Positions 6,527 to 64,000 of a stretch of DNA of 64,000 nucleotides are shown piece after piece (position 1 is the stretch's first letter; every line of letters starts with the position of its first letter). A program made the translations under genes and the position numbers. The notes beneath the pieces are model-generated. The model searched no databases. It was not told the DNA's origin and worked only from the letters and a program-made list of their open reading frames with translations. Source of the stretch: an uncultured Ignavibacteria bacterium (GTDB taxonomy: Bacteria; Bacteroidota; Ignavibacteria; UBA10030; UBA6906); NCBI GenBank assembly GCA_963780165.1, contig CAWABB010000007.1:35173-99172 (forward strand), written 5' to 3'.

Positions 6527-7650
6527 GAATCGCCATTATACATCCTTTTCTGTTCCGGTTCGCCCGGGGGATCGAGCGCTATGTTGCCAGCCTCTCGACG
6601 GAGCTTGCCAGGAACGGTGTCGGAGTTGACATCCTTACCTGGGCATGGCGCAATGAGATACGTTGGAAGGAGCTCAGTGGGGATGTCCGCATCAGGAAGA
6701 TGCCATACGTGCGCTATTGTGCGGCGACGTTCGCGGCAGTGTTCTATGTTCTCCAGCTTTCGTTTCGACGCTATGATGTGGTCGTCGTATTCTTCCCCGA
6801 CTATGGTGAGACGGTTGCCTTGCGACTCACCCGCCTGATGAGGCATCAACCGTATTGTATTGTGTTCCACTATCCACTCGAAGCGGCACCACATCGATAT
6901 CATCAATTCGCACGGTACAACTTCGCCCACAACGCCGATTCTCTCATCGCCGTGAGCGACTATGTGGCTGCTGACGTGAAACAAGAGTTCGGTCGGGATA
7001 GCGTCGTTATCCCCAACGGTGTTGATGTCTCGTCCTTCAAGTGTGACGAGGGCATGCGCAGGTCTGCTCGACAAAGACTTGGCCTCGCGGAGGATGCGCC
7101 CCTTCTGATTACTCTCGCCGCGCTGGAGGAACGCAAAGGCATTCAATGGCTGGTTCAATCGTTACCATTGCTCCTGCAGGAATTCCCCGACCTCACTTAC
7201 CTCGTCCTTGGTGAGGGGGCCTATCGCAATGCGCTCGAAGCCCAGATTGATCGCCTCTCACTCGGTGATCACGTCAGGCTGCTCGGGAGCCGTGTTGACG
7301 TCGTCGACTTTCTCGCAGCAGCGGATATCGGCTGTTTGCTCTCCAGAGGGGAAGCGATGGGGCTGTCGTTGCTTGAATGTATGGCGATGCGGCTTCCAGT
7401 TGTCACGTCGCGGAATCCCCCATTTACTGAGTTCGTGCGTCCTGAATGGGGAAGGCTTGTGGACGTGAATGACTCACAGTCGGTCGCGCGTACCATTGGT
7501 GGTCTCCTCCACGATGCAGAACTGCGCCGCAAGATGGGGGAATCAGCACGGGAGGAAGCGACTGGCAAGTACTCGTGGGCGAAAACTGCTGAGTGCTATC
7601 TTTCCATCTTTAAGCCGTCGCAGGGTCATCCTCCAGGGCCCGATCGATGA
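6523..7650 (+). CDS. Glycosyltransferase family 4
   Basis: VIPNGVD, LEERKG, EAMGLSLLECMA; start overlaps the previous stop. Confidence 0.88.
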   Translation: MRIAIIHPFLFRFARGIERYVASLSTELARNGVGVDILTWAWRNEIRWKELSGDVRIRKMPYVRYCAATFAAVFYVLQLSFRRYDVVVVFFPDYGETVALRLTRLMRHQPYCIVFHYPLEAAPHRYHQFARYNFAHNADSLIAVSDYVAADVKQEFGRDSVVIPNGVDVSSFKCDEGMRRSARQRLGLAEDAPLLITLAALEERKGIQWLVQSLPLLLQEFPDLTYLVLGEGAYRNALEAQIDRLSLGDHVRLLGSRVDVVDFLAAADIGCLLSRGEAMGLSLLECMAMRLPVVTSRNPPFTEFVRPEWGRLVDVNDSQSVARTIGGLLHDAELRRKMGESAREEATGKYSWAKTAECYLSIFKPSQGHPPGPDR

Positions 7651-50441: not shown

Positions 50442-51448
50442 AACAGTTCATCGAGAAAGTCGTCGAGGGCCGCGACCTGACCGCGGACGAGGCCGCCGGA
50501 GCGCTGGAACAGATCATGACCGGGAATGCGACGGATGCACAGATCGCCGCGCTCCTTGCCGGACTCCGTACGAAAGGGGAGACGGTCGGCGAGATTGTCG
50601 GCTTCGCACGAACCATGCGTCAGCACTCCCTAAAGGTGCGCGCCATAGATACGGACGCGATCGACATGTGCGGCACGGGAGGCGACGGCAAGGGGACGTT
50701 CAACATCTCGACTGTCGCTTCGTTCGTGGTCGCAGGGGCGGGTGTGACGGTCGCGAAGCATGGGAACCGGTCCGTCTCCAGCAGGAGCGGAAGCGCGGAC
50801 CTGCTCGAATGCCTCGGCGTGAAGATACAGATCGCTCCCGAACGGGTAGAGGGCTGTCTCAACGAGGTGGGCCTGGCATTCCTGTTCGCGCCGGCATTTC
50901 ACCCGGCGATGAAATCGGTGGCGAAGGCCAGGACAGAGATGGGAGTCCGGACCATCTTCAATATCCTGGGCCCCCTGACGAACCCCGCGGGCGTCACGAA
51001 GCAGGTGGTCGGGACGTACTCTCCGGCGGTTCAGCAGAAGCTCGCGGAGGCGATTCGTGCGCTCGCCTCCGAGCGTACCTGCGTCGTGCACAGCGAGTCC
51101 GGTCTGGACGAGGTATCAGTGAGCGGCCGGACGCACGTCTATGAGGTTGCGGGCGCCGGTGAGCCCAGGGAATATGCCCTGTCGGCAGAGAGCTTCGGAT
51201 TGTCGGATGCCGGCGGGAACGGGATCTCCGGCGGGACGCCTGCGGAGAACGCGGAGATCGCCATGAGGGTACTCGAGGGCGAAACGGGGCCTGCGCGTGA
51301 TGTCGTACTCGCAAACGCCGCTCTCGGCATCTACGTTTCGGGAAAGGCGATGAATCTCGAAGATGCCAGCGCAAGGGCCAGAGAGTCCCTCGATTCGCGC
51401 CGCGCGCTCGGCATTCTTCAACGACTGGTGGACCATACGAACGCATGA
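50438..51448 (+). CDS. trpD: Anthranilate phosphoribosyltransferase
   Basis: CGTGGD, NIST, KHGNRSVSS, GPLTNP. Confidence 0.96.
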   Translation: MKQFIEKVVEGRDLTADEAAGALEQIMTGNATDAQIAALLAGLRTKGETVGEIVGFARTMRQHSLKVRAIDTDAIDMCGTGGDGKGTFNISTVASFVVAGAGVTVAKHGNRSVSSRSGSADLLECLGVKIQIAPERVEGCLNEVGLAFLFAPAFHPAMKSVAKARTEMGVRTIFNILGPLTNPAGVTKQVVGTYSPAVQQKLAEAIRALASERTCVVHSESGLDEVSVSGRTHVYEVAGAGEPREYALSAESFGLSDAGGNGISGGTPAENAEIAMRVLEGETGPARDVVLANAALGIYVSGKAMNLEDASARARESLDSRRALGILQRLVDHTNA

Positions 51449-52230
51449 CGATCCTCGACGAGATCCTGGCACACAAGCGGGAGGAGGTGGCCGCGGCGAA
51501 GCGCACCACTCCGCTGGAACGGCTGCGGCAGATGCCGGGGTATGCTCGTCCGACACGGTCGCTCCGCTCCGCGCTGTCTGCCAGTGGGCCAGCGGTCATC
51601 GCCGAGGTGAAGAAAGCCTCTCCGTCGAAGGGGGTGATCCGGGCCGACTTCGATCCACTGAAGATCGCCGAATCGTACGTGCGGCATGGCGCGAGGGCTC
51701 TGTCGGTCCTGACAGACGAGAGGTTTTTTCAGGGAAGCCTTCAGTACCTCTCCGACATCCGGGAGCGCACCGCGGTCCCGGTCCTGCGGAAGGACTTCAT
51801 CGTTGATGCGTATCAGGTGCATGAGACGAGGGCGTACGGTGCCGACGCGATTCTCTTGATCGCTGCGGCTTTGTCGCCTGAAGTTCTCCGTACGCTCCAC
51901 AACGAAGCGGAACAGCTGGGGCTCGATGTGCTGGTGGAAGTTCACTCCGCGGAAGAGATTGACGCATTGCGAGGGATAGGCGTCTCGATGTACGGCGTGA
52001 ACAACCGGGATCTCAGGACATTCGAGACGTCGCTGGATGTGACAGTCCGGCTGGCGGGAATGATCCCGGAGGGGGCCCTGCTCGTCAGCGAAAGTGGGAT
52101 CAGGGACAGGAACGATGTTGCCATGCTGATGTCGCACGGAGTGAACGCCGTGCTGGTTGGGGAGTCCCTGATGAGGGCGCCCGATCCGGGCCTCGCGCTG
52201 GCGGAGCTCCTGAATGGAGCGCTTGGATGA
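51445..52230 (+). CDS. trpC: Indole-3-glycerol phosphate synthase
   Basis: IAEVKKASPSKG, SVLTD, LRKDF, GVNNRDL, SESGI. Confidence 0.96.
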   Translation: MTILDEILAHKREEVAAAKRTTPLERLRQMPGYARPTRSLRSALSASGPAVIAEVKKASPSKGVIRADFDPLKIAESYVRHGARALSVLTDERFFQGSLQYLSDIRERTAVPVLRKDFIVDAYQVHETRAYGADAILLIAAALSPEVLRTLHNEAEQLGLDVLVEVHSAEEIDALRGIGVSMYGVNNRDLRTFETSLDVTVRLAGMIPEGALLVSESGIRDRNDVAMLMSHGVNAVLVGESLMRAPDPGLALAELLNGALG

Positions 52231-52865
52231 CGTTCTTCGAGGGAAATGGCAGCGTGCGGATCAAGATTTGCGGCATCACGCGGGTCGAGGATGCTGCGGC
52301 GGCTGTTGCGGCTGGAGCCGATGCCGTCGGCTTTGTCTTTGTCTCATCCAGCCCGCGCGCGATTTCAGTTGAGGCTGCTGCACGTATCATCGAGACCCTT
52401 CCACAGTCCGTGACGCCTGTAGGCGTATTCCTCCGTCCGGCGGCAGACGAGATTCGTGAGGCTGCAGGAGTCGCTGGTATCAGACTCGCCCAGGTCCTTG
52501 AGGCACGGGGCATTGAGCGGAAGGATGTTCCCATTTCCCTCCTCCATGCGGTTCGTGTCGGACCACACTTCAACCATGCAACGCTCCGTGAGTGGGGAAT
52601 GCCTGAGTACCTCCTTGACACTCATGTTCAGGGACGCGATGGAGGGACGGGTCAGACGTTCGACTGGAGCGTTGCGGCAGAGGCGGGAAAGTATGCTCGC
52701 ATTGTGCTCGCCGGCGGACTGACGCCCGAGAACGTGGGTCGTGCGATCGAAGTGGCAAAGCCCTATGCGGTCGACGTAAGCACCGGAGTGGAGACGGCTC
52801 CCGGCCTCAAGTCCGCCGCAAAGATTGAAGCATTTGTGAAAGCCGTCCGCGCGTCGCAGTCCTGA
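52227..52865 (+). CDS. trpF: Phosphoribosylanthranilate isomerase
   Basis: [28 protein letters not shown]. Confidence 0.94.
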
Positions 52866-52935
52866 CACGGCGGTGAATTCCCACCCGGGGACAGCTCCCT
52901 GCCCCCGGTGCTACAGAAGAAAGGATCTGGCATCC

Positions 52936-53967
52936 ATGCTCGTTGTCATGAAAGCCCACGCGACTCCTGAAGAGATCGCTGCAGTGAAGCGGAAGATCAC
53001 CTCGATGGGGTACCGTCCGCACGAGATCCCCGGGGCGCTGCGGGTGGCAATCGGTATCACCGGCAATCGTGAGAAGATCAACCCCGAGAGCTTCAACACG
53101 ATGGGCGGGGTCGAGCAGGCGATCCCGGTATCGAAGCCGTACAAGCTTGTCGGGAAGGATGCCCGGCCCGACGGCGGCGGGGTGGACGTCGACGGCATCA
53201 CGATTGGAGGGCGCGAGCTGGCAGTCATGGCCGGGCCGTGTTCCGTCGAGAGCTGGGAGCAGCTGATCACCACGGCTCGGGCGGTGAAGGAAGCCGGGGC
53301 GCGATTCTTGCGCGGAGGTGCCTACAAGCCTCGCAGTTCTCCGTACAGCTTTCAGGGGATGAAAGAGGAGGGTTTGGTACTGCTGCGCGAAGCCCGGGCC
53401 GAGACGGGGCTGAAGATTGTGACCGAAGCACGCGATCCGCTGACACTGCCGGCGGTGGCGGAGGTCGCGGACATTGTCCAGATCGGCGCGCGGAACATGA
53501 GCAACTTCTCTCTCCTGGAGGCGGTAGGGGAACTCCGCAAGCCCGTGCTGCTCAAGCGCGGGATCTCAGCAACGATCGAAGAGCTCTTGATGGCTGCCGA
53601 ATACATCGCCGCCCGCGGAAATCTCAACATCATCCTCTGTGAGCGGGGGATCCGAACCTTCGAAACGGCCACGCGCAACACGCTCGACATCAACGCCGTG
53701 CCTGTCCTCAAAAAGCTGACGCATCTTCCGGTCATCGTCGACCCCAGTCACGGGATAGGGATGTGGGAAGGCGTCCCCGCGGTTGCGCTGGCGGGAGTTG
53801 CGGCCGGTGCCGATGGGCTGATGATCGAGGTACATCCCGAGCCTGAGAACGCGCTGTCGGATGGCTACCAGTCGCTCAAGCCGGGCAGATTCAGAGATCT
53901 CATGGTGAAGGTGCGCCGCATCGCTGAGGTCGTTGACAGAACGGTGCATGAGGAGGTGCCGGCATGA
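52936..53967 (+). CDS. aroF: DAHP synthase type I-beta with an N-terminal regulatory domain
   Basis: [43 protein letters not shown]. Confidence 0.93.
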
Positions 53968-55169
53968 CGGGGAAGACTGCTGCGTCCGGCTCCTACAGCT
54001 TCCCGGACGCGCGAGGATACTTCGGTGAGTTCGGTGGCCGGTTCGTTCCGGAGACGCTGATGCCCGCGCTGTTCGAGCTCGAGCGCCTCTACGAAACGGC
54101 ACGCGCCGATGCCAGCTTCCAGCGCGACTTCGAGCGGATGCTCTCGGAGTTTGCGGGGCGCCCGACACCGCTGACATTTGCGGAGAGACTGACTGAACAC
54201 TTCGGGAAAGGGAAGATCTACCTGAAGCGGGAGGACCTCTGCCACACGGGGGCACACAAGATTAACAACACGATAGGGCAGATCCTGCTCGCGAAGCGGT
54301 CGGGAAAGACCCGCATCATAGCGGAGACGGGGGCGGGCCAGCACGGCGTCGCGACGGCTACGGTTGCGGCCAAGCTCGGCATGCAGTGCGTCGTGTACAT
54401 GGGAGAGGAAGACACCGTGCGCCAGGAACTGAACGTCCGTCGCATGCGGATGCTCGGTGCGGAGGTGGTGCCGGTGACATCAGGCACGCGCACGCTGAAG
54501 GATGCGACCAGCGAGGCGATCAGGGATTGGGTCACGAACGTCCGGGACACATTCTATATTATTGGTTCGGTGGTGGGGCCGCATCCGTACCCGAGGATGG
54601 TGAGAGATTTCCAGACCGTGATCGGCCATGAGACGCGGCGGCAGATCCGGGAAGTCGAGGGGAGAGATCCGGACATTCTCCTTGCATGCGTGGGTGGAGG
54701 CAGCAATGCGATCGGGTTGTTCCATCCGTTTCTGGACGCCGATGTGAGAATGATTGGAGTGGAGGCTGCCGGACTCGGACTGGATTCCGGCAAGCATGCT
54801 GCGACGCTGTCGCTTGGACAGCCGGGCGTGCTGCACGGGTCGCTCAGCTATGTGCTTCAGGATGACGATGGGCAGGTCGCGCTCGCGCATTCGATCTCCG
54901 CGGGCCTCGACTATCCCGGGGTGGGCCCGGAGCACAGCCATCTGAAACTTGTTGGGCGGGTTGAGTATGGAGCGGTGACGGATCGGGAGGCGCTGGCCGG
55001 AGCGCATCTGCTTGCCCGTCTTGAGGGGATCATTCCCGCGCTTGAGACTGCGCACGCGCTTGCGTACCTGAACAGTCTGATGCCGCAAACGAATGCCCGT
55101 GACATCGTGATCGTGAATGTGTCGGGCCGGGGTGATAAGGACATTGCAGCGTTGACCAGCCATGAGTGA
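53964..55169 (+). CDS. trpB: Tryptophan synthase beta chain
   Basis: [32 protein letters not shown]. Confidence 0.97.
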
Positions 55170-55950
55170 CCGACTGCAGAAGCGTCTCGAGGGTTTGAGG
55201 TCCCGGAAGAAGCGGGCCCTGGCGTTCTTCTATACTGCCGGCTATCCGGCGATCGATTCGACCGTGCAGGTCGGGCGTGCGCTTGCTGCGGGTGGTGCGG
55301 ACATCATCGAGCTTGGCATGCCGTTCTCGGATCCCCTGGCGGACGGGCCGGTGATACAGAAGAGTTCAGAGGCAGCGCTCCGCAACGGGATGTCGTTGAA
55401 GTTGCTCCTGGAGCACGTGCGTCTTCTGCGGAATGAAGTTGATGTTCCGATTGTGCTGATGGGCTACCTGAACCCGATCATGCGGTACGGCTCGAAGAAG
55501 TTCTTCGCGGAGGCGGGAAGTGCGGGTGTGGACGGTATCATTCTGCCGGAGCTGCCGCTTGAGGAAGCAGGGAGGTATGCAGAGGAATTGCGTGAGGCGG
55601 GTCTTGCGCAGATCCTTCTTGTGACGCCCACGACACCTCCGGCTCGGCTGGCGGAGATTGATTCCCTGGCGTCCGGGTTTGTCTATTGTGTCTCGATGAC
55701 CGGTGTAACGGGTGGGCAGGTCACTGGGGGCGTGTCCGCGTACCTTCGGGGAGTCAGGGAGCGCGTCACGCAGAATCCTATGTTGGTCGGGTTTGGTATT
55801 TCCACGCCTGACCAGGCCGCCGTGATGGGAGCGGAGGCCGACGGTGTCATTATCGGGAGTGCCTTGATCCGTCAGTTGGAGAAGCCGGGTGCCGTGGCGG
55901 CTCTACCCGGTTGGGTCCGCACGTTCCGCGAGGCAATCGACCGCATCTGA
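55162..55950 (+). CDS. trpA: Tryptophan synthase alpha chain
   Basis: [32 protein letters not shown]. Confidence 0.96.
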
Positions 55951-56547
55951 ACCTCTTCACCCTTCTCTTTGAGTAGGTTCGTCACCCCTCAGTCTTCCTC
56001 GCTTCCTTGGTGATTCCCTGTTCAGGTTGCCATCTTTCGCGTCCACTGCAGCCCTCGTCATTCATCCATCCTCGTGTCCTCACCCTGTCCAAGTGGCTTG
56101 TGGCTTGCCAAGGCATCCTGCGGGTTGTGTCTTGCCCACTTGTTTTGTGCCTTGTCTAGGCCTTTGGTGGGTTGCCCTTGGGTTCTGTGCCCTGCTCCGA
56201 GGTCTTGTGCCCCGGCCCTGAGTCCATCGCCGCTCCCCAACATCCTCTGCTTTGCCTCAGTGTCGCCCGTGCTCATTTCATGTGCTTCACCCATCTCTCT
56301 TCATGGATTCATCACCCCTCTGTGTTCATATCGCAGTCACCTATCTTTCATCACTGCCATCACCCACAAAAAAAAGTTTTGCGTTCGATCGAAAAAACTC
56401 GGATGACTGAGTAGGATGGGTAGAACACAGCTCATCGAGTTTGCCTGGCGTCGCTTGTTCCCTGCCGCATGTGGCCCTTCTCTTGCGCGGCTGAAGTGAC
56501 GCACTGCTTTCCGCATCACTAGCGTTCAAGTTTGTCCCGAAAACTGT

Positions 56548-57090
56548 GTGAACCCTATGGCGGACACCCCTCCAACCCGGTCTGGAGTTAAGCCTTCTGA
56601 TCTCTGGATCGCAGCCTACAAACAGTACTTCGCGTTCTGGAAAAATCTCGCGAGGACTATTCATCTGTCGTCCGAAGAGGCTGAGGACGTCGTGCACACC
56701 GTGATCGCAGGATTGCTCACGGATGGGGCGCGCGACTTTGAGTCGCTCGAACACCTGAGGAACTACGTATCGCGAAGTGTTCTCAACAGGGCGATGCAAT
56801 ACAAGCAGCGGTCGAAGCGGTTCTCCGTCTGGGAGGAGGCCGTGGAGGTGAAGCTAGCGTGTGCCCCCGATCTGGCCCCGGGAGACGCCGAGCTTTTACA
56901 GGGCTCGTTCAGGCGCGGGTTGCTTCGACTGTCGGACAGTGATTTCCAGCTAATCAAGTTACGGTTCTTTACGGGACTGACGTTTGCCGAGTTGAGCACG
57001 CTCCTGGGCATGCCCATATCGACGCTCAAGAGTAGGGAAATCTCCGCGTTGCGCAAACTTCGCACCTGGATGCGCGACGACGGGTTCTAA
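56548..57090 (+). CDS. ECF-type RNA polymerase sigma factor
   Basis: Region 2 EEAEDVVHTV..YVSRSVLNR; region 4 LRFFTGLTFAELSTLLGMPISTLKSR. Confidence 0.8.
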   Translation: MNPMADTPPTRSGVKPSDLWIAAYKQYFAFWKNLARTIHLSSEEAEDVVHTVIAGLLTDGARDFESLEHLRNYVSRSVLNRAMQYKQRSKRFSVWEEAVEVKLACAPDLAPGDAELLQGSFRRGLLRLSDSDFQLIKLRFFTGLTFAELSTLLGMPISTLKSREISALRKLRTWMRDDGF

Positions 57091-57129
57091 TCACTCCACG
57101 GTCCCACTGGATCGTGTCTGGAGGATACT

Positions 57130-57936
57130 ATGGCCCCGAAACTTAGTCCTTCCCAGCTTTCCGATTTTGTGCTCGGGAAACTCTCGCCTGAAGAATCCCT
57201 TCGCGTGCTCGACGAGCTCGAGCGTGACCCCGAAGCTTCGGAGACTGTAGACTACTATGCTTCCTTGCTTGCCTATGCTCGAGGCGAGGGGAGGTCGGTC
57301 TTTGAAGATCGGGTGAATGGGCGTCAAGGTGGCTCGTTCGCCGAGGTACGGCGTGCGGTCCGCCGTGTCTCCCACCGGCGGTGGGTCTTCGCTGCCGCTG
57401 CGATACTTGCTCTGAGCATCTTCGTGGGCCTGCTGATTCGCGGGAAGTCCATCCTCTGGGGTGACGATGCCAGGTACGCTGCGCTGTCGGAGGTGGAGTT
57501 CGGCGTTGGCATTCGGGCCGAGACTGATGACAATCTCCTGGTGGCGATGAATCTCTTCCATGAAGGTGAGTACGACAGGTCCATCCGGATTCTGGAGAGG
57601 TCGATAAAGAGGGAGCCTGCACATCCGCATTTGGACTTCGTGAACTACTCGCTTGGTTTGGTACATCTTGTCGCGGCCGAAGGAAGTGGGAGTGGTCCCA
57701 TCAGGGTTTTTGACCGGGAGCATGTTCGTCAGGGGCTCGAGGGTCTGAGGCGGGCAGCAATGTTGACCGCGAGTTCACGGTTGGCTGAAGAGTCCTACTG
57801 GCTGATGGCAAAGGGGCATCTGATGGTCGGGGAGACGGAGGAAGGGATACGATTTCTGCAGAAGGTAATCGAGTTGGGGGGACAGCGTGGGGGAGAAGCC
57901 ACGAGGTTGAAGGTCCTTATCGAGAGTGAGGAGTGA
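57130..57936 (+). CDS. Putative anti-sigma factor: short N-terminal domain, one TM helix, TPR-like C-terminus
   Basis: LSDFVLGKLSPEE, TM WVFAAAAILALSIFVGLLI, TPR-like YSLGLVHL and YWLMAKGHL; directly follows the sigma gene. Confidence 0.65.
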   Translation: MAPKLSPSQLSDFVLGKLSPEESLRVLDELERDPEASETVDYYASLLAYARGEGRSVFEDRVNGRQGGSFAEVRRAVRRVSHRRWVFAAAAILALSIFVGLLIRGKSILWGDDARYAALSEVEFGVGIRAETDDNLLVAMNLFHEGEYDRSIRILERSIKREPAHPHLDFVNYSLGLVHLVAAEGSGSGPIRVFDREHVRQGLEGLRRAAMLTASSRLAEESYWLMAKGHLMVGETEEGIRFLQKVIELGGQRGGEATRLKVLIESEE

Positions 57937-57943
57937 AGCTGCC

Positions 57944-60900
57944 GTGAGGTCGAAGATTCGTTTCCTGGCGGTATGTGCCATTGCGCTTGCGTCGGGGCAG
58001 GTGGCGATAGCAGGGACGTTCAGCAAGGAGTATCTGGACCTTCGTCGGATGGTCGGGAGGGCGGATTACGATGCCGCCTTAGAGCGTTGTGAAGCGATGA
58101 TCGTGCAGTATCCCAGGGAAGGTGTGTTGTACGAGGGATTGGCGGAGATCGCCCAATACGCTGGTCGGATTGATGATGCGATGTCGTTCCTTTGGGAGCG
58201 CGTGGAGGACGGGGCGGGTTTGTCGATGTGCTATTTTGCGTTGGGGAATCTGAGTTACCGTCGCGAGGACGATAGGAATGCGGTCATGTTCCTTGGCAAG
58301 GCCATCGAGCTCGGCGTGGAGGTGCCGGAGTGTTACTCTGCCTTCATATACTCCTATGAACGCTTGGAAGGAATTGATGCGACCTTGAGACTGATGACAT
58401 CGCTCTGCCATCGGCATCCCGCAAAGGCTGGCTACTGGTACGGACTTGCTTTGGCATATTGGGTCAATGGTGATTATTCACAAGTTCTGAGACATCTAGG
58501 GGAGGCATTAAGAATCAGGCCACTGGAGGATCGATATCAGCATGCAAGAATTACCGTCATGATGCTCAATGCCAAGGACACGGATGCGGGCGGATTCGTG
58601 TCCCAGATGATTGCAAATGCATTTGAGAAGAATGATTTCCACGGCCTGTTCCTGATGATGTCCGGGGTTGTCATCCGCAGACAGCAGCAAGGCCTCATTG
58701 ACTCTGCGATAGAAGAATGTAGGGCGTTGCTCAGAGTGTCAGAGAAATTCGGATATGTCAGGTGGACAGGCTGGGGGTACAAGCAACTTGCTGACATCTA
58801 TTCTGTGCTATCGCAATATGGTGGGTCGGTCGAGGCAGCAGAAAGGGCATATTTGAATGCGTGCGTCTCTGGGGACTTTCACCTGATGCAGTCCTCCCTG
58901 GCGAGGGCATTTGATTCGAATCTTGAACTCCTGAACCTGGGCGGGGCAATCCCGTGCCTTGCTCGACGAGTTGAAGCGTGCAAGACATCACAGTCTCGAA
59001 CATATCTGATCGGCATATTGCTGGACGCATCAAGGCTCTTTGTGTTCTTGGGACAGCCAGAGGTAGCACTTGAACTGGTAATCAGTGCTTTAAATTTGTC
59101 TGAACGCACTGCCCTCGACCGTCGACTCTACTGGGAGATACACTCTACCCTTGGTAACGTGTATGAGCAGTTGGGTGATTATCAATCGGCTCTCAGGCAT
59201 TACGAGATCACGCAATCCATTACTCCTGCCGAGCCCTTCTACTCTCGAGTTCAGGCAATCACTCAGGGCAACTTGGGGAGCGTCTATTTGCGAATGGGAT
59301 TTCCGCAGCGGGCGCGGGAGCGATTTTTGGCACAGGTGGCGTTTGCATTGGAAGCCAGATACGTGCGGGAGGCTGCATACGGGCACCTGAATCTAGGAAA
59401 GGCAAATCTTGAACTAGGGAAATGGAGGTCCGGTCATGAGGAATTGCTTCAGGCACTCGAGCTATCAGAAAAGGATTCCATCCGTCTTTGCCAGAAATTG
59501 GCACTGAAGGCCATTGCAGCTTCATATTTGGCTTGCGGTGATAGTACAAGAGCAGAGCAAGCGCTCCGCAGGCATGATTCACTTTCCGCCTGCAACAGAG
59601 TATCCAGTTCACTCTTGGTTAGCAGTAGGTTGCTGCGAGATCCGAATGACGACGAAGATAAACTTGCGCAGATTCTCTGTGCCCTCGGAAAGATGGAGCA
59701 AGGATTCTTGTCCGAAGAGACAATTCGCACAAGACATCAGCCCCTGTGGGCTGTGAATTGGGAGGGGATGAGAGATGACGAAGGCGGCAATGTGGCAATC
59801 TCGAACTTCGTGCAGACCTCGAAGAAGCTGAGAGCGGCTGTTGACAGTCTTTCTTCAAGGCCTGAGATGCAGGGCGGTCTTGTTGCTATGCCAGAGGATG
59901 CATTGTTCCTATTCGCAACCGCTGCTACACTCGATCTCCAGCGTCAGCAGGCACTTGCGGATCTGAAGGGAGATCCGCGGACGCAACGACTTGTCGCGAA
60001 GAGGGGAATGATTAAGGAGCTAGGGCAGATTCAATATCGACTTGGCAAGGAAGAGGCCGTTTTGTCATATATCCTTTCAAGCCAGGAATCCTTTGCCTGC
60101 GTCATTACTCGGGACGCAATCGCCTTCTGCAGCAATCTTCCTGGTCGGGATTCTATATCGTCACTGCTAAAGAGACTCAATCACATAACAGATCCATCTG
60201 AATCCCAGGCTCTCATACTGCCGCCGCTCCTAGATGACAGTGATTTGAAGTTGTGTGAAGAAGTGTACAGAGAGTTGATGGCTCCACTAGAAGCACTACT
60301 TTCCCGATCGTCGAGAGTCTTCATTATCCCTCCCACAGGGATACCGCCGATACCATTTGACCTGATGGTGTGCAAGTCTGCTGCGGCGTCAACGAGCAAC
60401 CTAAATGGAGGGATGTTCCTCATCGAGAGATTTGAGATCTGCTACATACCGGATTTGTCAAGTCTGCTGTCCAAGAGTAGCCAGGACTCTCAATCTGCGC
60501 ACAGGTGGATCGGGTTTGGAAACCCAGACTTGCCCTCGCGATCGAGGGGAAGCTTCGATCCAGACATGGAATTTCTCGGCAAGCACCTTGGGGTGAGTAC
60601 TCGCGTTGAGCTTGCGGCAGTACCAGAGGAGATCGATGGAATCAAGGAGAGATTTCAGAAATCGGGAGTGGCATTTCTGGGCGCGAATGCAACTCGGACC
60701 ACACTCCTATCTTTGGCCGGCACCGCTGATGTTGTGCACATTGCGGCCCATGGCTACCTTCATGATCGTATACCATGGGCGAGTGGGCTAGCATTATCAG
60801 GCACCAATCAGGCGGGGGTACCAACTGTTCTCACGGCCTTTGACATCTTCGAGTATCCTCTCGCGCGGAAGCTTCTCGTGCTTTCAGGTTGCATGTCTCT

Positions 60901-61282
60901 CAAGGCTGGGGGAATATGGACAAATGCCGGTGGGTTAAGACTCCCTTTTCACGGGGAAGTGCCGGTGATTGGATCCTGGTCATTCGTGGATGATCGTAGC
61001 ACGGCTGATCTCATGCTCAGGCTTTATGCGCATCTAGGCAGCGGCGTGTCGAGTTCCATGGCGCTAACTATGGCCAAGAGGGAGATTATTCGAGAGACAG
61101 GAGGTCGTTCACCCTATTGGGCAAACTTTTCTCACATCGGTTCACCAGTGGCTATATTCAGAAGCAAGAGTGAATCTCCCTCTGGAAAAGATGACTGGGC
61201 ATGGTTGCTGGTAGGTGGGGTTGCACTTCTGCTTGTCTCGGTTTGCGCGGTAGTTCTTGTGAGGAGGTACTCAAATTCATAA
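57944..61282 (+). CDS. TPR-CHAT caspase-like protease with a signal peptide and C-terminal membrane anchor
   Basis: Signal ending VAIA-G, many TPRs, IIPP..IPFDL, VVHIAAHG (His), LVLSGC (Cys), W.VDD, PYWANF, terminal TM followed by RR. Confidence 0.88.
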   Translation: MRSKIRFLAVCAIALASGQVAIAGTFSKEYLDLRRMVGRADYDAALERCEAMIVQYPREGVLYEGLAEIAQYAGRIDDAMSFLWERVEDGAGLSMCYFALGNLSYRREDDRNAVMFLGKAIELGVEVPECYSAFIYSYERLEGIDATLRLMTSLCHRHPAKAGYWYGLALAYWVNGDYSQVLRHLGEALRIRPLEDRYQHARITVMMLNAKDTDAGGFVSQMIANAFEKNDFHGLFLMMSGVVIRRQQQGLIDSAIEECRALLRVSEKFGYVRWTGWGYKQLADIYSVLSQYGGSVEAAERAYLNACVSGDFHLMQSSLARAFDSNLELLNLGGAIPCLARRVEACKTSQSRTYLIGILLDASRLFVFLGQPEVALELVISALNLSERTALDRRLYWEIHSTLGNVYEQLGDYQSALRHYEITQSITPAEPFYSRVQAITQGNLGSVYLRMGFPQRARERFLAQVAFALEARYVREAAYGHLNLGKANLELGKWRSGHEELLQALELSEKDSIRLCQKLALKAIAASYLACGDSTRAEQALRRHDSLSACNRVSSSLLVSSRLLRDPNDDEDKLAQILCALGKMEQGFLSEETIRTRHQPLWAVNWEGMRDDEGGNVAISNFVQTSKKLRAAVDSLSSRPEMQGGLVAMPEDALFLFATAATLDLQRQQALADLKGDPRTQRLVAKRGMIKELGQIQYRLGKEEAVLSYILSSQESFACVITRDAIAFCSNLPGRDSISSLLKRLNHITDPSESQALILPPLLDDSDLKLCEEVYRELMAPLEALLSRSSRVFIIPPTGIPPIPFDLMVCKSAAASTSNLNGGMFLIERFEICYIPDLSSLLSKSSQDSQSAHRWIGFGNPDLPSRSRGSFDPDMEFLGKHLGVSTRVELAAVPEEIDGIKERFQKSGVAFLGANATRTTLLSLAGTADVVHIAAHGYLHDRIPWASGLALSGTNQAGVPTVLTAFDIFEYPLARKLLVLSGCMSLKAGGIWTNAGGLRLPFHGEVPVIGSWSFVDDRSTADLMLRLYAHLGSGVSSSMALTMAKREIIRETGGRSPYWANFSHIGSPVAIFRSKSESPSGKDDWAWLLVGGVALLLVSVCAVVLVRRYSNS

Positions 61283-61320
61283 CTCGTTGGCCGTACTGAC
61301 TCGTGAACAGCAAGGCCGGT

Positions 61321-62268
61321 CTACAGGCTGAAGGGGACGGGGCTGAAGCTAAGGACGAAACAGCCTACGGAGAGAAAGAAGGCTGTTGATCTCGAAGCCG
61401 TCAGTGCCATGCCCTGCTCTGAGGGCCCGTGCTGGCGTCGACTCCCAAACCGCTCGAAAATGAAGAGAAGCAGAGCCCACATACCCCACCCGAGCCATCC
61501 TAGGTTTGTCGGTCCACCAAGTAGCTGGAGTAGGCCCAAAGCACCTAATAGGACGAGAATCACAAATGCTACTCGTCCAACATTGTGGGCAGCAACAGGA
61601 TATACAGCGGCAACAATGTGTCCGCCATCCAGCTGTCCGATTGGGATGAGGTTCAATGCTGTAACAAAGAGACCAAACCAGCCCACACAGAGAAGGGGGT
61701 AGTGGTAGATCTCGTTCATGGGGGGAACAAAGGCACCATCCTTGGTAAACAAGAACTTGATAGCTTCAAATGCTAGGTTCGAACCAAATGTCAAGCCTGT
61801 CGTGGGTATGGATTCCATCGCTCTGTATTCAGGATGCACACCATATAAGAAGTCAACCGGCGGGAGAGTAGCGAACCCGATAGCGAGGATGACAATACTA
61901 ACAAAGAATCCAGTGAGGGGTCCACTTACGCCTATGTCGAATAGAGCAGTGCGAGACGGGATCTCGCTCCTAATTCTAATTACAGCTCCAAGCGTTCCAA
62001 AAGGCACGAGACCATAGTATGGAGGGAATGGCAGGAAATACGGAAGGCTGGAGGAAACTCGGTTCAGTCTGGCGGCGAGAAAATGCCCCATTTCATGAGA
62101 TCCCAACATTAGAGTCAGTAGTAGCGCGTATGGTATCCCTTTCGACCAGTTGGTTAACTCGGTAGGATCGTTTCCTGACCACTGTACCCCAGCCAATGTC
62201 GTGGTTAGCACAGTTCCTAGCAGAAGCAATCCCGGAAGTAAGAGACTCCTCGCTGTGATCTTCTCCAT
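61321..62268 (-). CDS. Site-2 protease (M50) without PDZ or CBS domains
   Basis: HEMGH, GTLGAVI, SGPLTG, NLIPIGQLDGGH. Confidence 0.92.
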   Translation of the reverse strand: MEKITARSLLLPGLLLLGTVLTTTLAGVQWSGNDPTELTNWSKGIPYALLLTLMLGSHEMGHFLAARLNRVSSSLPYFLPFPPYYGLVPFGTLGAVIRIRSEIPSRTALFDIGVSGPLTGFFVSIVILAIGFATLPPVDFLYGVHPEYRAMESIPTTGLTFGSNLAFEAIKFLFTKDGAFVPPMNEIYHYPLLCVGWFGLFVTALNLIPIGQLDGGHIVAAVYPVAAHNVGRVAFVILVLLGALGLLQLLGGPTNLGWLGWGMWALLLFIFERFGSRRQHGPSEQGMALTASRSTAFFLSVGCFVLSFSPVPFSL

Positions 62269-62335
62269 TTGGATTAGAGAGTTAATGGGTCAATGATTGG
62301 GACGATGATTACATTACAAATCACTACATGTAACA

Positions 62336-62370
62336 ATAAAAAGAAAGGCCGGCTCATTTACGAGCCGGCC
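62336..62370 (-). terminator. Rho-independent terminator after the repeat-peptide gene
   Basis: ggccggctc-gtaaat-gagccggcc followed by tttcttttt on the minus strand. Confidence 0.8.
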
Positions 62371-62417
62371 AGCGGGATATCAAGCAACTACACTAAAGCT
62401 GGGCGTCAGCCCAGGAT

Positions 62418-62663
62418 CTACGGCCGAGGAGATTCTGGAAGATGCGGAACGCCGCTACGAGTGGGGCGCGGCGATTCGGGCAGGTGAGGGACGCCGCTCT
62501 TCGCTGCCTCTTGGCCCAGTTCCACCGATGAAACTGAAGCCCTCGTAGGTCTCGGAGATTCAGGAAGATGTGGGACCCCGCTCGCGAGTGAGATTGCGTA
62601 ATTTGAGATGGCAACAACTGCCAAGACAAATGCCAACGAACGCACACGTTTCATTGTTTGCAT
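62418..62663 (-). CDS. Small secreted precursor with three SGVPHLPESPRP cores (81 aa)
   Basis: GGAGG SD, Sec-type signal, three identical 12-aa repeats that differ only at synonymous sites, own promoter and terminator. Confidence 0.85.
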   Translation of the reverse strand: MQTMKRVRSLAFVLAVVAISNYAISLASGVPHLPESPRPTRASVSSVELGQEAAKSGVPHLPESPRPTRSGVPHLPESPRP

Positions 62664-62841
62664 TGCGTTCACCTCCAGAAGTGAGTCAAGGGTAATTCTG
62701 TCAGACGTTTAGTTTCTTCGTTCAAAGCGGTGTTGGTCATCTCTAGCAATCGCAATTAGTCGGCGCTGACCAAACTTCGTGATGAATAGTGGCGAACTAT
62801 CGCACGGAAGGGGTGGCTAAACTCTCAACCAACTGTGTGCA

Positions 62842-62870
62842 AATATATGCAGCCCCAAAACATTTGTCAA
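62842..62870 (-). promoter_or_regulatory. Sigma70-type promoter of the peptide gene
   Basis: TTGACA-N17-TATATT on the minus strand. Confidence 0.65.
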
Positions 62871-63017
62871 GGAATTACTGAAATTCCGCAAAATTTTTTG
62901 TATGGCGTCGTTGGTTGGCTCCGGGCATACAGGTTGCTGCTGCCAGATGCCCTTGGGGCCAAAATGTGATAAGTGACACAAAAACCGCGTTTTCGAGTAG
63001 ATTTCTGCGTCTTGCAC

Positions 63018-63046
63018 TTGACTCCCAAATATGGGGTGGATATATT
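63018..63046 (+). promoter_or_regulatory. Divergent sigma70-type promoter
   Basis: TTGACT-N17-TATATT, ending 11 bp before ATG 63058. Confidence 0.65.
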
Positions 63047-63057
63047 GGACGCAGACA

Positions 63058-64000
63058 ATGACACTGCCGGGGAGACATAGCAGCACGTTGGGCAGGGCAT
63101 ACCTGATGGCAGGGGGGGTCATCGGGTTCTATGGTATCACCCTGTTGCTGCTCCCTCACTATCCTGTGGACCTTGCCGCATTTCTTACCTACTCGGTCCA
63201 GACACTTCTGCTGTTTATCTGCCTTGCGGTGTTCAGGCACGAGCCGACCCGTAATCGCCGGTTCGTTTTCCTCAACTTTGCGATAATGCTTTTCGATCGC
63301 CCCCGTAGCCCACCTCTACAACTTCGTGGGTACAGTCATCCCGGCAGAGTGGTTCTACTCCGACACCCGATTCTCCAGGTTCCTGATCAATCAGTATGTC
63401 TTCCGCGGCGCGTATTTCCTTTTCCTCGCTGTGGCGCTCGGCTACCTTGCGATCGATCTCGTCCTTCGTGAGCAACGGGTCATGATGAAATACATCGTCA
63501 CGATAGGTATCGTCGCGATGTTCTTCGGCGTGTACTACTACCCGTTCATTCGTGATCCGCTCTATCTCCACAAGACCGCCGACGTCCAGGAATGGAAAGT
63601 CCTCGACCAGGCGTTCGCAAGCGTCAAGCAAAGGACCGGAGCAGACCCGACGGCTGAACAGCTCGCAGCCTTGCCGTCGGTCCGGGCGGCGTTCGATGCG
63701 ATGGAGGTCACCAACGAGCCGGCACGCGTCACGGAACTCTATCCGTACCTCTTCGCGGATAACTGGAAGATTCTTGTGTTCAAACCGCTCCACCTGAACC
63801 AGGTCTATATGTCAATTCTGGCGATCGGGTTCGTGATCCTCTTCTTCGGCTATCAGTTCCTGAAGGATCCGCCACAGGGGGCGTACATCGAGAAAGTCAT
63901 GTTCCTCTTCCTCGCGTTCTGCACGCTGGAAGCGTTCCATGCCTATATGGCGACGTCTATCATCGAGTGGCAGGCACTCAAGCACTTTACTATCCTCGGG
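63058..64000 (+). CDS. Multi-pass membrane protein of unknown function (frameshift near 63290, runs off the window)
   Basis: Hydrophobic helices in the first frame; second frame open to the window end (YFLFLAVALGYL, YYYPF, FFGYQFLKDPPQGAYIEK). Confidence 0.7.

Follow-up and report, generated by a model that had tools for sequence, protein, structure and literature searches.

Do the genes at positions 56,548 to 64,000 of a 64,000-nucleotide stretch from an uncultured Ignavibacteria bacterium form one complete peptide-signalling circuit? The whole stretch (contig CAWABB010000007.1, positions 35,173 to 99,172) is called the window in the following. A small gene for a precursor peptide with repeated cores lies here between a gene for an intramembrane protease of family M50 and a divergently oriented gene for a multi-pass membrane protein. 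A trio of genes, coding for a sigma factor of the extracytoplasmic function (ECF) type, a putative anti-sigma factor and a TPR-CHAT protease, converges on the M50 gene. A preliminary description had joined these six genes into a single circuit in which the secreted peptide is matured by or activates the TPR-CHAT protease, the anti-sigma factor is cleaved in two steps and the sigma factor is set free. All six genes and their arrangement were found as described, with 38 nt (61283-61320) separating the stop codons of the convergent TPR-CHAT and M50 genes. Comparison with related genomes showed that the peptide, M50 and membrane-protein genes stay together across the order and that the trio is present in a minority of the loci. 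G000 denotes this genome and G001 its sister species of the same genus; f1, f2, f3 and so on are families of the order.

The precursor peptide

The peptide gene lies in an open reading frame (ORF) on the minus strand (62418-62672), with a probable ATG at 62663 that is preceded by GGAGG. Its product of 81 amino acids consists of a Sec-like leader, MQTMKRVRSLAFVLAVVAISNYAISLA, followed by three copies of the 12-residue core SGVPHLPESPRP. The spacers between the cores differ, TR versus TRASVSSVELGQEAAK in the window and K, TISLEK, AMQL or SIAL in relatives. Core copies 1 and 2 of the window differ at 10 of 14 codons, each time synonymously, and copies with identical amino acids in relatives differ at up to 12 of 13 and 15 of 20 codons (35 genes compared); that only synonymous differences are seen follows from the design of this comparison, for which copies identical in amino acids were chosen. 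Between species the middle of the core varies (PHL, PVL, PII, GTV, ATT, AVM and others) and its flanks, SGV... and ...P-D/E-x-P-R/K-P, are constant. Identical amino acids, recoded DNA and unlike spacers together indicate a multi-copy pro-peptide with the cores as the selected products, and the sequences argue for excision of the units or, at the least, for their being read one by one. Leader, tandem identical cores, divergent spacers and purifying selection on the protein, all of them seen in this precursor, are the marks of multi-copy secreted pro-peptides, which are a functional class and not a homology family.

Pfam and NCBIfam scans of the precursor returned no family. With the window precursor as query, 13 of 41 relatives were matched at E<=1e-3, every one in the same family. 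A profile of 12 members (alignment A1, from which the precursors of G004 and G010 were excluded, being frameshifted in their assemblies) matched 33 of the 401 genomes sampled from the class Ignavibacteria: 14/14 in f1, 6/8 in f5, 6/23 in f8, 2/16 in f7, 1/1 in f2 and three others. One of these three (G171) was judged spurious as it falls within a 359-aa frame with a stop. When 8000 candidates from a collection of 5.8 billion proteins were scored, 127 clusters reached E<=0.01; the 120 clusters listed carry no Pfam domain and are unnamed or annotated as 'hypothetical protein'.

Common to the precursors are a basic N-terminus and a hydrophobic segment in which one Asn is invariant and whose end is A-x-A-like (TN-x-AIS-x-A). 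N-x-[AGTS]-[ILV]-[SGATN], the motif of the leader, is conserved in 73 of the 79 unique precursors; 72 contain an exact repeat of 7 aa or more, and 68 have a P[RK]P end, with at most one further residue. There are 2-7 tandem units per precursor in the relatives, nearly all of them ending with P-R/K-P. In at least 12 genes the first core follows the A-x-A site immediately; later cores are preceded by Lys or Arg in most genes. The cores are short peptides of nearly neutral charge, each with a single acidic and a single basic residue; they are neither amphipathic nor cationic. Each genome has one copy of the peptide gene at a fixed chromosomal site, with no sign of an island. The exception is G016 with two peptide genes (L026 9899-10141; G016:C53:43-165), one of them at a contig end; its full second copy has an unrelated neighbourhood without M50 or membrane gene.

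For the study of gene neighbourhoods 80 loci were fetched with a profile of the membrane protein and 32 around the peptide matches. Of the 60 species-representative loci whose flank measures 900 nt or more, 59 contain the peptide, which was detected 51 times by a hidden Markov model (HMM) of the leader and eight times by repeat search; four automatic peptide ORFs in the wrong frame (L147, L151, L163, L216) were replaced by leader-HMM matches. Because homologues with the same leader and repeated cores stand at the same position in these loci, the peptide gene is, judged by its sequence, a real gene of an unnamed family and no chance ORF. The earlier view of a real, secreted-looking peptide is thus confirmed, and we consider it very likely that the peptide is a genuine exported multi-copy product.

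The peptide gene has transcription signals of its own. TTGACA-17-TATATT at 62870-62842, about 175 nt 5' of the ATG, is the best of six promoter-like sites in 8 kb, a number of sites no higher than in shuffled sequences (5.2 +/- 2.2). TTGAC(A/T/C) followed 16-19 nt on by a -10-like hexamer was present 95-320 nt before the ATG in 38 of 58 upstream regions, and a hairpin of -10 kcal/mol or below with a T-rich tail was present within 140 nt of the stop codon in 25 of 30 homologous genes; both are raw counts without shuffle control. The hairpin in the window has a 10-bp stem with eight G-C pairs. Its own promoter and terminator suggest that the peptide gene is a stand-alone unit with a long 5' untranslated region (UTR), which is probably strongly transcribed. 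An Rfam scan of 55800-64000 at E<=0.1 gave no family, so no described RNA matches this long 5' UTR. The promoter-like sites of the peptide and membrane genes stand back to back, about 150 bp apart.

A sigma-54 promoter 5' of the peptide gene was considered and rejected: by eye the GG..GC spacing does not fit, and a conserved sigma-70-type site is found instead. Also by eye, several f1 peptide promoters (e.g. L023, L025, L027, L028, L032) contain T(T/A)GCGA(A) as a direct repeat, one copy within the -35/-10 spacer, the other just past the -10, about 20 nt apart, and f7 loci (L192/L198/L217/L224) a palindrome GTGATG-n3-4-CATCAC just 3' of the -10. These repeats and palindromes may be operators or 5' hairpins.

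Genes linked to the peptide gene

Where the flank extends to 2.2 kb or more, 50 of 54 loci carry the M50 gene. It is located directly downstream of the peptide gene in 29 of the 32 peptide-centred loci, and one other of these ends at a contig end. The proposed linkage of the peptide to M50 and to the divergent membrane gene is thus a persistent one. The preliminary description overlooked a gene for an AAA+ regulator with a helix-turn-helix (HTH) domain, which is paired with the membrane gene in all 76 loci with at least 600 nt downstream of it.

PF02163 is the sole domain of the M50 protein (71.6 bits against a cut-off of 27.2, E=7.7e-20). At least 29 of 30 orthologues retain the residues H58-E59-x-x-H62 and N206-x-x-P209-x-x-x-x-D214-G215. 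With both the HExxH and the NxxPxxxxDG motif the protein belongs to the peptidase M50 or site-2 protease family, and its catalytic site is predicted to be intact. It falls outside the RseP/Eep subgroup, which is defined by one or more PDZ domains between membrane segments and a length of about 420-450 aa: the protein has 315 aa and no PDZ domain, and TIGR00054 scores 16.3 bits against a cut-off of 147. A second, separate M50 protein of 442 aa, RseP-type and with a full-length M50 match, is encoded elsewhere in the genome. A PDB sequence search with the M50 protein found no solved relative.

In this assembly the membrane gene has a +1 frameshift near 63285, so that the N-terminal part is read from 63031 and the C-terminal part in frame from about 63290 (the listed ORF starts at 63326). 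In relatives the gene is one intact ORF of 365-400 aa. An AlphaFold2 model of an orthologue (predicted local distance difference test, pLDDT, 86.5; predicted TM-score 0.83) comprises eight long helices and a helical insert at 165-231; according to this model, DPPQGAY and the C-terminal tail motif ITRWRD are probably on the cytoplasmic side. The protein belongs to no family in Pfam or NCBIfam. Foldseek found no match of the model in the PDB at E<=0.001 and none below E=0.2. The top rows were G-protein-coupled receptors (E 0.2-0.9, TM-score 0.26-0.38), and a kinship with seven-transmembrane proteins was rejected as generic helical-bundle noise. The ESM Atlas was uninformative (best feature score 0.79, TM-score at most 0.30). 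When the eight-transmembrane (8-TM) protein (alignment A2) was co-folded with the mature part of the precursor belonging to it, the scores were 0.47, 0.02 and 0.01 against a mark of 0.32, which carries weight neither way. In a sample of the phylum, the membrane protein was found in 19 of 401 genomes, all of this order, with 0/87 and 0/61 in the two largest other families.

The regulator is PspF-like and consists of an AAA+ domain (PF00158, E=1.8e-33) and a Fis-type HTH only. Sigma-54 enhancer-binding proteins carry the GAFTGA loop in addition to the PF00158 domain. This loop is absent, and an RGVEGLPYTS-like sequence stands in its place in all 29 regulator orthologues that cover the site; the 30th is truncated and falls short of it. 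The regulator is therefore unlikely to act via sigma-54, and to judge from its sequence it is probably no sigma-54 activator.

Paralogues of the membrane protein, single or in tandem pairs, were found in four genomes: L117 (G031), L118 (G072), L119 (G039) and L120 (G028). Each of these loci has its own diverged GAFTGA-less copy of the regulator gene (29-41% identity) and neither M50 nor repeat peptide. Since the two genes duplicate together, membrane protein and AAA+ regulator behave as one two-gene module. In G405 the peptide gene was retained beside this module while M50 was relocated, which speaks for the link between peptide and module. The paralogue loci of G031 and G072 adjoin a PorV-like gene.

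The sigma factor trio and the replaced block

ECF (group 4) sigma factors are defined by sigma-2 and sigma-4 regions only, in about 180 aa, and the sigma factor of the trio falls among them. Its TIGR02937 score is 47.4 bits (cut-off 42.9), and Sigma70_r4 passes its threshold (E=2.7e-9); Sigma70_r2 is weak, with 17 bits against 24. In other genomes its orthologues (38-48% identity) likewise have the anti-sigma and CHAT genes as neighbours. The TPR protein encoded next is a putative single-pass, class I-like anti-sigma factor: it is predicted to have an N-terminal cytoplasmic domain, one transmembrane (TM) helix at about residues 85-103 and an extracytoplasmic TPR domain. The NF052375 'anti-sigma factor' model reaches 26 bits against a cut-off of 100, and TPR_14 is at its cut-off. 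In relatives the gene always lies between the ECF and CHAT genes, and at least 10 genomes conserve it together with the ECF gene. The protein has no Cys and is therefore no zinc anti-sigma factor.

The TPR-CHAT protein has an N-terminal signal-like segment, TPR arrays (TPR_12, E=1.7e-20), a CHAT domain at 775-1073 (PF12770, E=3e-34, 119 bits) and a C-terminal TM anchor. H942 in H(I/L)A(A/S/M)H and C989 in LS(G/S/A)C are kept in all six orthologues that cover the region, a truncated seventh falling short of it. PF12770 and the predicted His-Cys dyad thus place the protein among the CHAT (clan CD) proteases, a class marked by a caspase-like fold and a catalytic His and Cys. A PDB sequence search with it returned TPR matches only and no solved CHAT chain. 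Peptide binding by the TPR domains of RRNPP regulators had been cited as a parallel. In those regulators a cytoplasmic TPR receptor is fused to an HTH or phosphatase, and the peptide is re-imported by Opp. The two TPR proteins of the trio fall outside this group: each has a signal or TM segment, which places the TPR domains outside the cytoplasm, both lack an HTH, and the neighbours are similar to components of the type IX secretion system (T9SS) and include no Opp importer. PADLOC gave only generic TPR and AAA-HTH matches and no support for a defence system, and no genes of CRISPR systems or of CBASS, the cyclic-oligonucleotide-based antiphage signalling systems, were found near the trio. An ECF-type promoter shared by the regions upstream of the ECF genes was not seen on inspection by eye in seven genomes.

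The trio adjoins the M50 gene in G000, G001, G015, G763, G021, G010, G017, G335, G101 and G034 (f3), and is located at contig ends in G007 and G008. Where present, it always lies between the T9SS-like operon and M50. Of 54 loci with sufficient flank, 11 have the CHAT gene. Relatives of the anti-sigma factor occur in 11 of 121 genomes of the order, namely 8/24 in f1 (without G000), 1/3 in f3, 1/3 in f9, 0/11 in f2 and 0/24 in each of f5, f7 and f8. The trio is restricted to part of f1, f3 and possibly f9 and is a facultative insert at this site. As it is absent from most carriers of the peptide, M50 and membrane genes, it is no obligatory part of a peptide circuit. Of the proposed six-part circuit, the link between peptide, M50 and membrane gene is supported; the neighbourhoods of the peptide homologues bear out co-occurrence with M50, and with CHAT and ECF genes in a minority only.

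Comparison with G001 revealed a block at 58474-62544 without blastn similarity (the aligned segments end at L007 2646 and restart at 6718). It contains the CHAT gene from about residue 183 on, the whole M50 gene and peptide repeats 2-3. The left flank, with the ECF and anti-sigma genes and the first 182 CHAT codons, is 91% identical to G001, and the right flank is 96% identical from peptide codon 39 on for 10 kb. In both species the G+C content of the block is 0.52-0.53, compared with 0.57-0.59 in the flanks and 0.615 in the genome; at third codon positions it is 0.53, compared with 0.65-0.77 in the flanks. Between G000 and G001 the M50 proteins are 55% and the AAA+ regulators 98% identical. 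In repeat 1 of G001, CAT CTT is replaced by GTG TTG inside near-identical DNA, so that one residue differs, H versus V. General hypervariability of M50 and CHAT was rejected as an explanation: other same-genus pairs align straight through M50 at 79-87% with no break, which therefore points to a single replacement event. The block is compatible with a cassette-like exchange of the protease genes together with a change of the peptide, and a single event cannot show exchange.

Features of the locus and of its immediate surroundings (positions in the window)
Feature	Position	Strand	Remarks
ECF-type sigma factor, 180 aa	56548..57090	+	alternative ATG at 56557
Putative single-pass anti-sigma factor with TPR ectodomain, 268 aa	57130..57936	+	
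TPR-CHAT protease, 1118 aa	57926..61282	+	11-nt overlap with the anti-sigma gene
Block without nucleotide similarity to the sister species	58474..62544	not applicable	blastn
PDZ-less M50 (site-2 protease family) intramembrane metalloprotease, 315 aa	61321..62268	-	PF02163
Intrinsic-terminator-like hairpin and T tract	62347..62370	-	3' of the peptide gene
Precursor peptide gene, 81 aa	62418..62663	-	stop codon 62418-62420; leader MQTMKRVRSLAFVLAVVAISNYAISLA, then three cores
Core copy 1, SGVPHLPESPRP	62547..62582	-	directly behind the predicted A-x-A leader cleavage site
Core copy 2, SGVPHLPESPRP	62463..62498	-	spacer TRASVSSVELGQEAAK in front
Core copy 3, SGVPHLPESPRP	62421..62456	-	C-terminus of the precursor
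Promoter-like site of the peptide gene, TTGACA-17-TATATT, then TG	62842..62870	-	11/12
Divergent promoter-like site of the membrane gene, TTGACT-17-TATATT	63018..63046	+	10/12
8-helix membrane protein, no known family	63031..64000	+	continues to about 64222, past the window
AAA+/HTH regulator, 348 aa	~64240-65286		outside the window, directly 3' of the membrane gene

In most genomes a T9SS-like operon of four genes lies 3' of M50 and in the same direction as it (e.g. L029 4170-8497); the products are a protein of the choice-of-anchor-X kind, a BNR/sortilin-like one that bears a T9SS C-terminal domain, and two members of the PorV/PorQ family. In this genome the four-gene block is located elsewhere (C7:384181), with a trp operon in its place. 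This row of tryptophan biosynthesis genes upstream of the ECF gene (51445-55950, about 62% G+C) was labelled by reading the translations as trpC-like, trpF-like, DAHP (3-deoxy-D-arabino-heptulosonate 7-phosphate)-synthase-like, trpB and trpA. The G+C content across the locus studied here, 0.49-0.57, is below that of the trp stretch. The region between trpA and the ECF gene, of about 600 bp, is pyrimidine-rich, and the sign of the G+C skew flips within it. It contains at 55955-56352 three copies of a direct repeat of about 43 nt (CTTCACCC...TCACCCCTC...), which are 60-77% alike, and it aligns with the sister species only partially, with 74% over 318 nt.

Proposed mechanism and known systems

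From the genes, domains, catalytic motifs, conservation, co-location and selection signature we infer the following course of processing, sensing and output. The order-wide core module would start from a pre-pro-peptide with a Sec-type leader, an invariant Asn, an A-x-A site and 12-mers joined by disposable spacers ending with Lys or Arg. The precursor would insert with its N-terminus inside and its C-terminus outside, and the leader would be removed by signal peptidase, cleared or cut by the PDZ-less M50 protease, or both. An envelope protease would then cut after the basic residue and yield several copies of one species-specific, proline-rich peptide ending with P-R/K-P, which would serve as a signal outside the cell or in the periplasm. 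As sensor the divergent 8-TM protein is the most likely candidate; it would control the AAA+/Fis-HTH regulator via its conserved cytoplasmic loop and tail. In an accessory module, CHAT would be a signal-activated site-1 protease for the anti-sigma factor, and cleavage would be completed by a site-2 protease, for example the RseP-type enzyme encoded elsewhere in the genome. The reading that we tentatively favour, as a possibility somewhat short of being probable, is a secreted peptide signal whose maturation M50 assists and which the 8-TM/AAA+ pair senses; the CHAT switch would be an accessory or independent neighbour. A more far-reaching version appears unlikely to us: a species-specific proline-rich pheromone with an alpha-factor-like precursor, PDZ-less M50 help and a receptor made of the 8-TM protein and a sigma-54-independent AAA+ protein, which in some lineages would also feed the split DdvA-like switch described below, the cassette of protease and peptide being exchanged among species like a pherotype locus.

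Several observations weigh against the favoured reading. The basic residue before a core, or the PRP ending, is missing in some relatives. Between the peptide gene and M50 stands a terminator, so that the two form no obligate operon. The membrane gene is frameshifted here and, by a different 1-nt indel, also in G001 (L022); this would be odd for an essential receptor and could reflect assembly errors or gene decay in the genus. Orthologous M50 genes are located elsewhere, away from the peptide, in G016 and G405. Over 15-20 kb the gene order is conserved across the order, running from the T9SS-like operon through M50, peptide, membrane protein and regulator to GT2, M16, aminotransferase and nuo genes; adjacency alone is therefore weak evidence and perhaps partly a matter of inheritance. 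Partial Mantel tests with regulator divergence controlled, for which 34 of the 80 loci were usable, singled out no specific partner by co-variation: the core gave r=0.08, p=0.19 with the external insert of the membrane protein, r=-0.02, p=0.59 with M50 and a weak signal of r=0.18, p=0.025 with the rest of the membrane protein. Finally, no exporter, importer or modifying enzyme was found near the locus.

The same synteny, which includes housekeeping genes, together with the terminator, the lack of specific co-variation and the relocation of M50 in two genomes that retain the peptide, would fit a stable chromosome stretch of unrelated neighbours, with M50, membrane protein and CHAT trio acting on other targets. 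We regard this as unlikely, given the divergent promoter pair with the membrane gene, the retention of the peptide gene beside the membrane and regulator genes after rearrangement (L067), leader features that exceed a generic signal peptide, and a shared narrow taxonomic range: the membrane protein in the phylum sample is entirely, and the peptide in the class sample almost entirely, of this order. The single circuit as originally drawn, with the 12-mer binding to or matured by TPR-CHAT, cleavage of the anti-sigma factor, a site-2 cut by the adjacent M50 and release of the ECF sigma factor, is possible but not needed to explain the locus, and we consider it very unlikely. All of its parts are adjacent in the window, the trio where present stands at the same spot convergent on M50, and between the two species of the genus a single block, comprising CHAT from about residue 183 onwards, M50 and the distal repeats, was replaced along with the change of the core from H to V. 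Clan CD proteases often cleave after basic residues, and K or R precedes every core in the CHAT-bearing genomes; it precedes cores in CHAT-less genomes too, however. One ancient insertion would explain the constant position of the trio, and the block replacement is a single event. In most genomes the peptide, M50 and membrane genes are retained where the trio is missing, and M50 must therefore have a trio-independent role. The idea of CHAT as site-1 protease for the anti-sigma factor has a published precedent in DdvA (PMC11506125). The adjacent M50 as the site-2 protease finds no such support: it lacks a PDZ domain, and a separate RseP-type M50 exists; RseP is the site-2 protease shown for DdvA in the same source.

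Site-2 protease substrates need helix-destabilising residues. The precursor might accordingly be a substrate of regulated intramembrane proteolysis itself, a membrane-anchored, proline-rich and multivalent ligand with an N-in TM anchor and several PxxPxP epitopes, which would dock to a periplasmic partner and whose abundance would be set by M50. The invariant Asn in the middle of the hydrophobic segment and the conserved leader motif resemble such residues more than a generic signal peptide, a short ectodomain with the N-terminus inside would suit a PDZ-less site-2 protease encoded next door in most loci, and the identity of the repeats within each genome would be in keeping with an array for multivalent binding. 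Cores that directly follow the A-x-A site and unlike, often basic-ending spacers point instead to excision of the units, and no partner domain is co-encoded in all genomes, so that we consider an anchored ligand an unlikely alternative to a released signal. An antimicrobial or other secreted effector of the multi-core bacteriocin or RiPP (ribosomally synthesised and post-translationally modified peptide) kind, with M50 as maturation protease as proposed for YydH/YydF in Bacillus, would be in keeping with a stand-alone, strongly promoted small gene with a terminator beside a membrane protease and with cores that diversify fast between species. It is nevertheless very unlikely in our view. The conserved neighbourhood (M50, 8-TM, AAA+, GT2, M16, PorV/PorQ-like, choice-of-anchor) contains no modifying enzyme, immunity gene or ABC exporter and no recognised RiPP enzyme that would make it a RiPP cluster, although a role of GT2 or M16 is conceivable. 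The short, near-neutral cores, the fixed single site and the lack of a PADLOC or defence match also argue against an effector.

Each element of the locus resembles a known kind. Yeast alpha-factor, insect apidaecin and cyanobactin PatE are multi-copy pro-peptides matured by Kex2-type processing or RiPP enzymes. The precursor described here shares with them the signal sequence, the tandem identical cores, the often basic-ending, presumably discarded spacers and the species-variable cores; no modifying enzymes are encoded here, and membership in these groups cannot be claimed. Eep/RseP-dependent pheromones of enterococci and streptococci are single-copy hydrophobic fragments that are re-imported by Opp and recognised by cytoplasmic RRNPP/Rgg receptors. 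YydH also belongs to family M50. It is described in the accessible portion of its report as a membrane-anchored putative protease thought to free the YydF peptide (PMC7026026). With these systems the locus has in common a small precursor with a hydrophobic N-terminal segment beside, or dependent on, a membrane-embedded protease and, for several of them, a signal gene divergent from the sensor or regulator gene. It differs from them in the hydrophilic proline-rich repeats, the PDZ-less M50, the lack of Opp nearby and the candidate 8-TM/AAA+ sensor. Enhancer-binding proteins of the PspF type are controlled in trans by a membrane-associated partner. The regulator is like them in consisting of AAA+ and Fis-type HTH only and in being encoded with a membrane protein; it differs in lacking the GAFTGA loop and in having as its partner an 8-TM protein unrelated to PspA.

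The closest counterpart of the trio is DdvS/DdvA of Myxococcus xanthus. As far as the available text of PMC11506125 goes, the anti-sigma factor there itself bears a periplasmic TPR-CHAT part, which is proposed to cut itself as site-1 protease before RseP cuts, and DdvA-like proteins are reported only in Myxococcota and one Comamonas. Both systems have an ECF gene beside a gene for a single-pass anti-sigma factor, here a putative one, and an extracytoplasmic TPR-CHAT part with a His-Cys dyad, and for both a site-1 then site-2 logic is proposed. Here, the putative anti-sigma factor (268 aa, with a TPR ectodomain) and the TPR-CHAT protein (1118 aa, with its own signal segment and C-terminal anchor) are encoded by separate, overlapping genes, the anti-sigma factor lacks the CHCC zinc domain and the host belongs to another phylum. 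With two proteins and no Cys, it is not a DdvA-type anti-sigma factor as such; by its sequence features the trio is a split, zinc-free relative of DdvS/DdvA. In the type III-E Craspase, according to the sections of PMC10028731 at hand, the TPR-CHAT protein Csx29 cuts the inhibitor Csx30 and thereby relieves the ECF-like CASP-sigma. A TPR-CHAT protease that lifts the inhibition of an ECF-like sigma factor by cutting its inhibitor would be the common principle, suggested here by the genes; Craspase is cytoplasmic, RNA-guided and CRISPR-linked, whereas the trio is predicted to be extracytoplasmic and membrane-anchored and has no cas genes nearby. An ECF group with CHAT-domain neighbours is mentioned in the accessible part of PMC8999054.

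A full-text literature search, whose coverage excluded subscription journals, returned no account of this family of precursors, of its link to M50 and the 8-TM/AAA+ pair, or of peptide signalling in Ignavibacteria; Pfam, NCBIfam and PADLOC gave none either. Multi-copy pro-peptides, M50-dependent maturation and TPR-CHAT-controlled ECF sigma factors are known kinds. There is a real chance that the locus as a whole is a new signalling system. Peptide cell-cell signalling is well documented in Firmicutes and eukaryotes. If true, the pheromone reading would be the first case of peptide quorum sensing in the Bacteroidota and the Fibrobacteres-Chlorobi-Bacteroidetes (FCB) group. The selection signature of the cores is unusually clean and predicts, for dozens of uncultured species, a defined ligand that can be synthesised. 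The 8-TM/AAA+ pair is a candidate signal-transduction module. The natural split of a DdvA-type TPR-CHAT anti-sigma factor could help to test the role of CHAT as site-1 protease.

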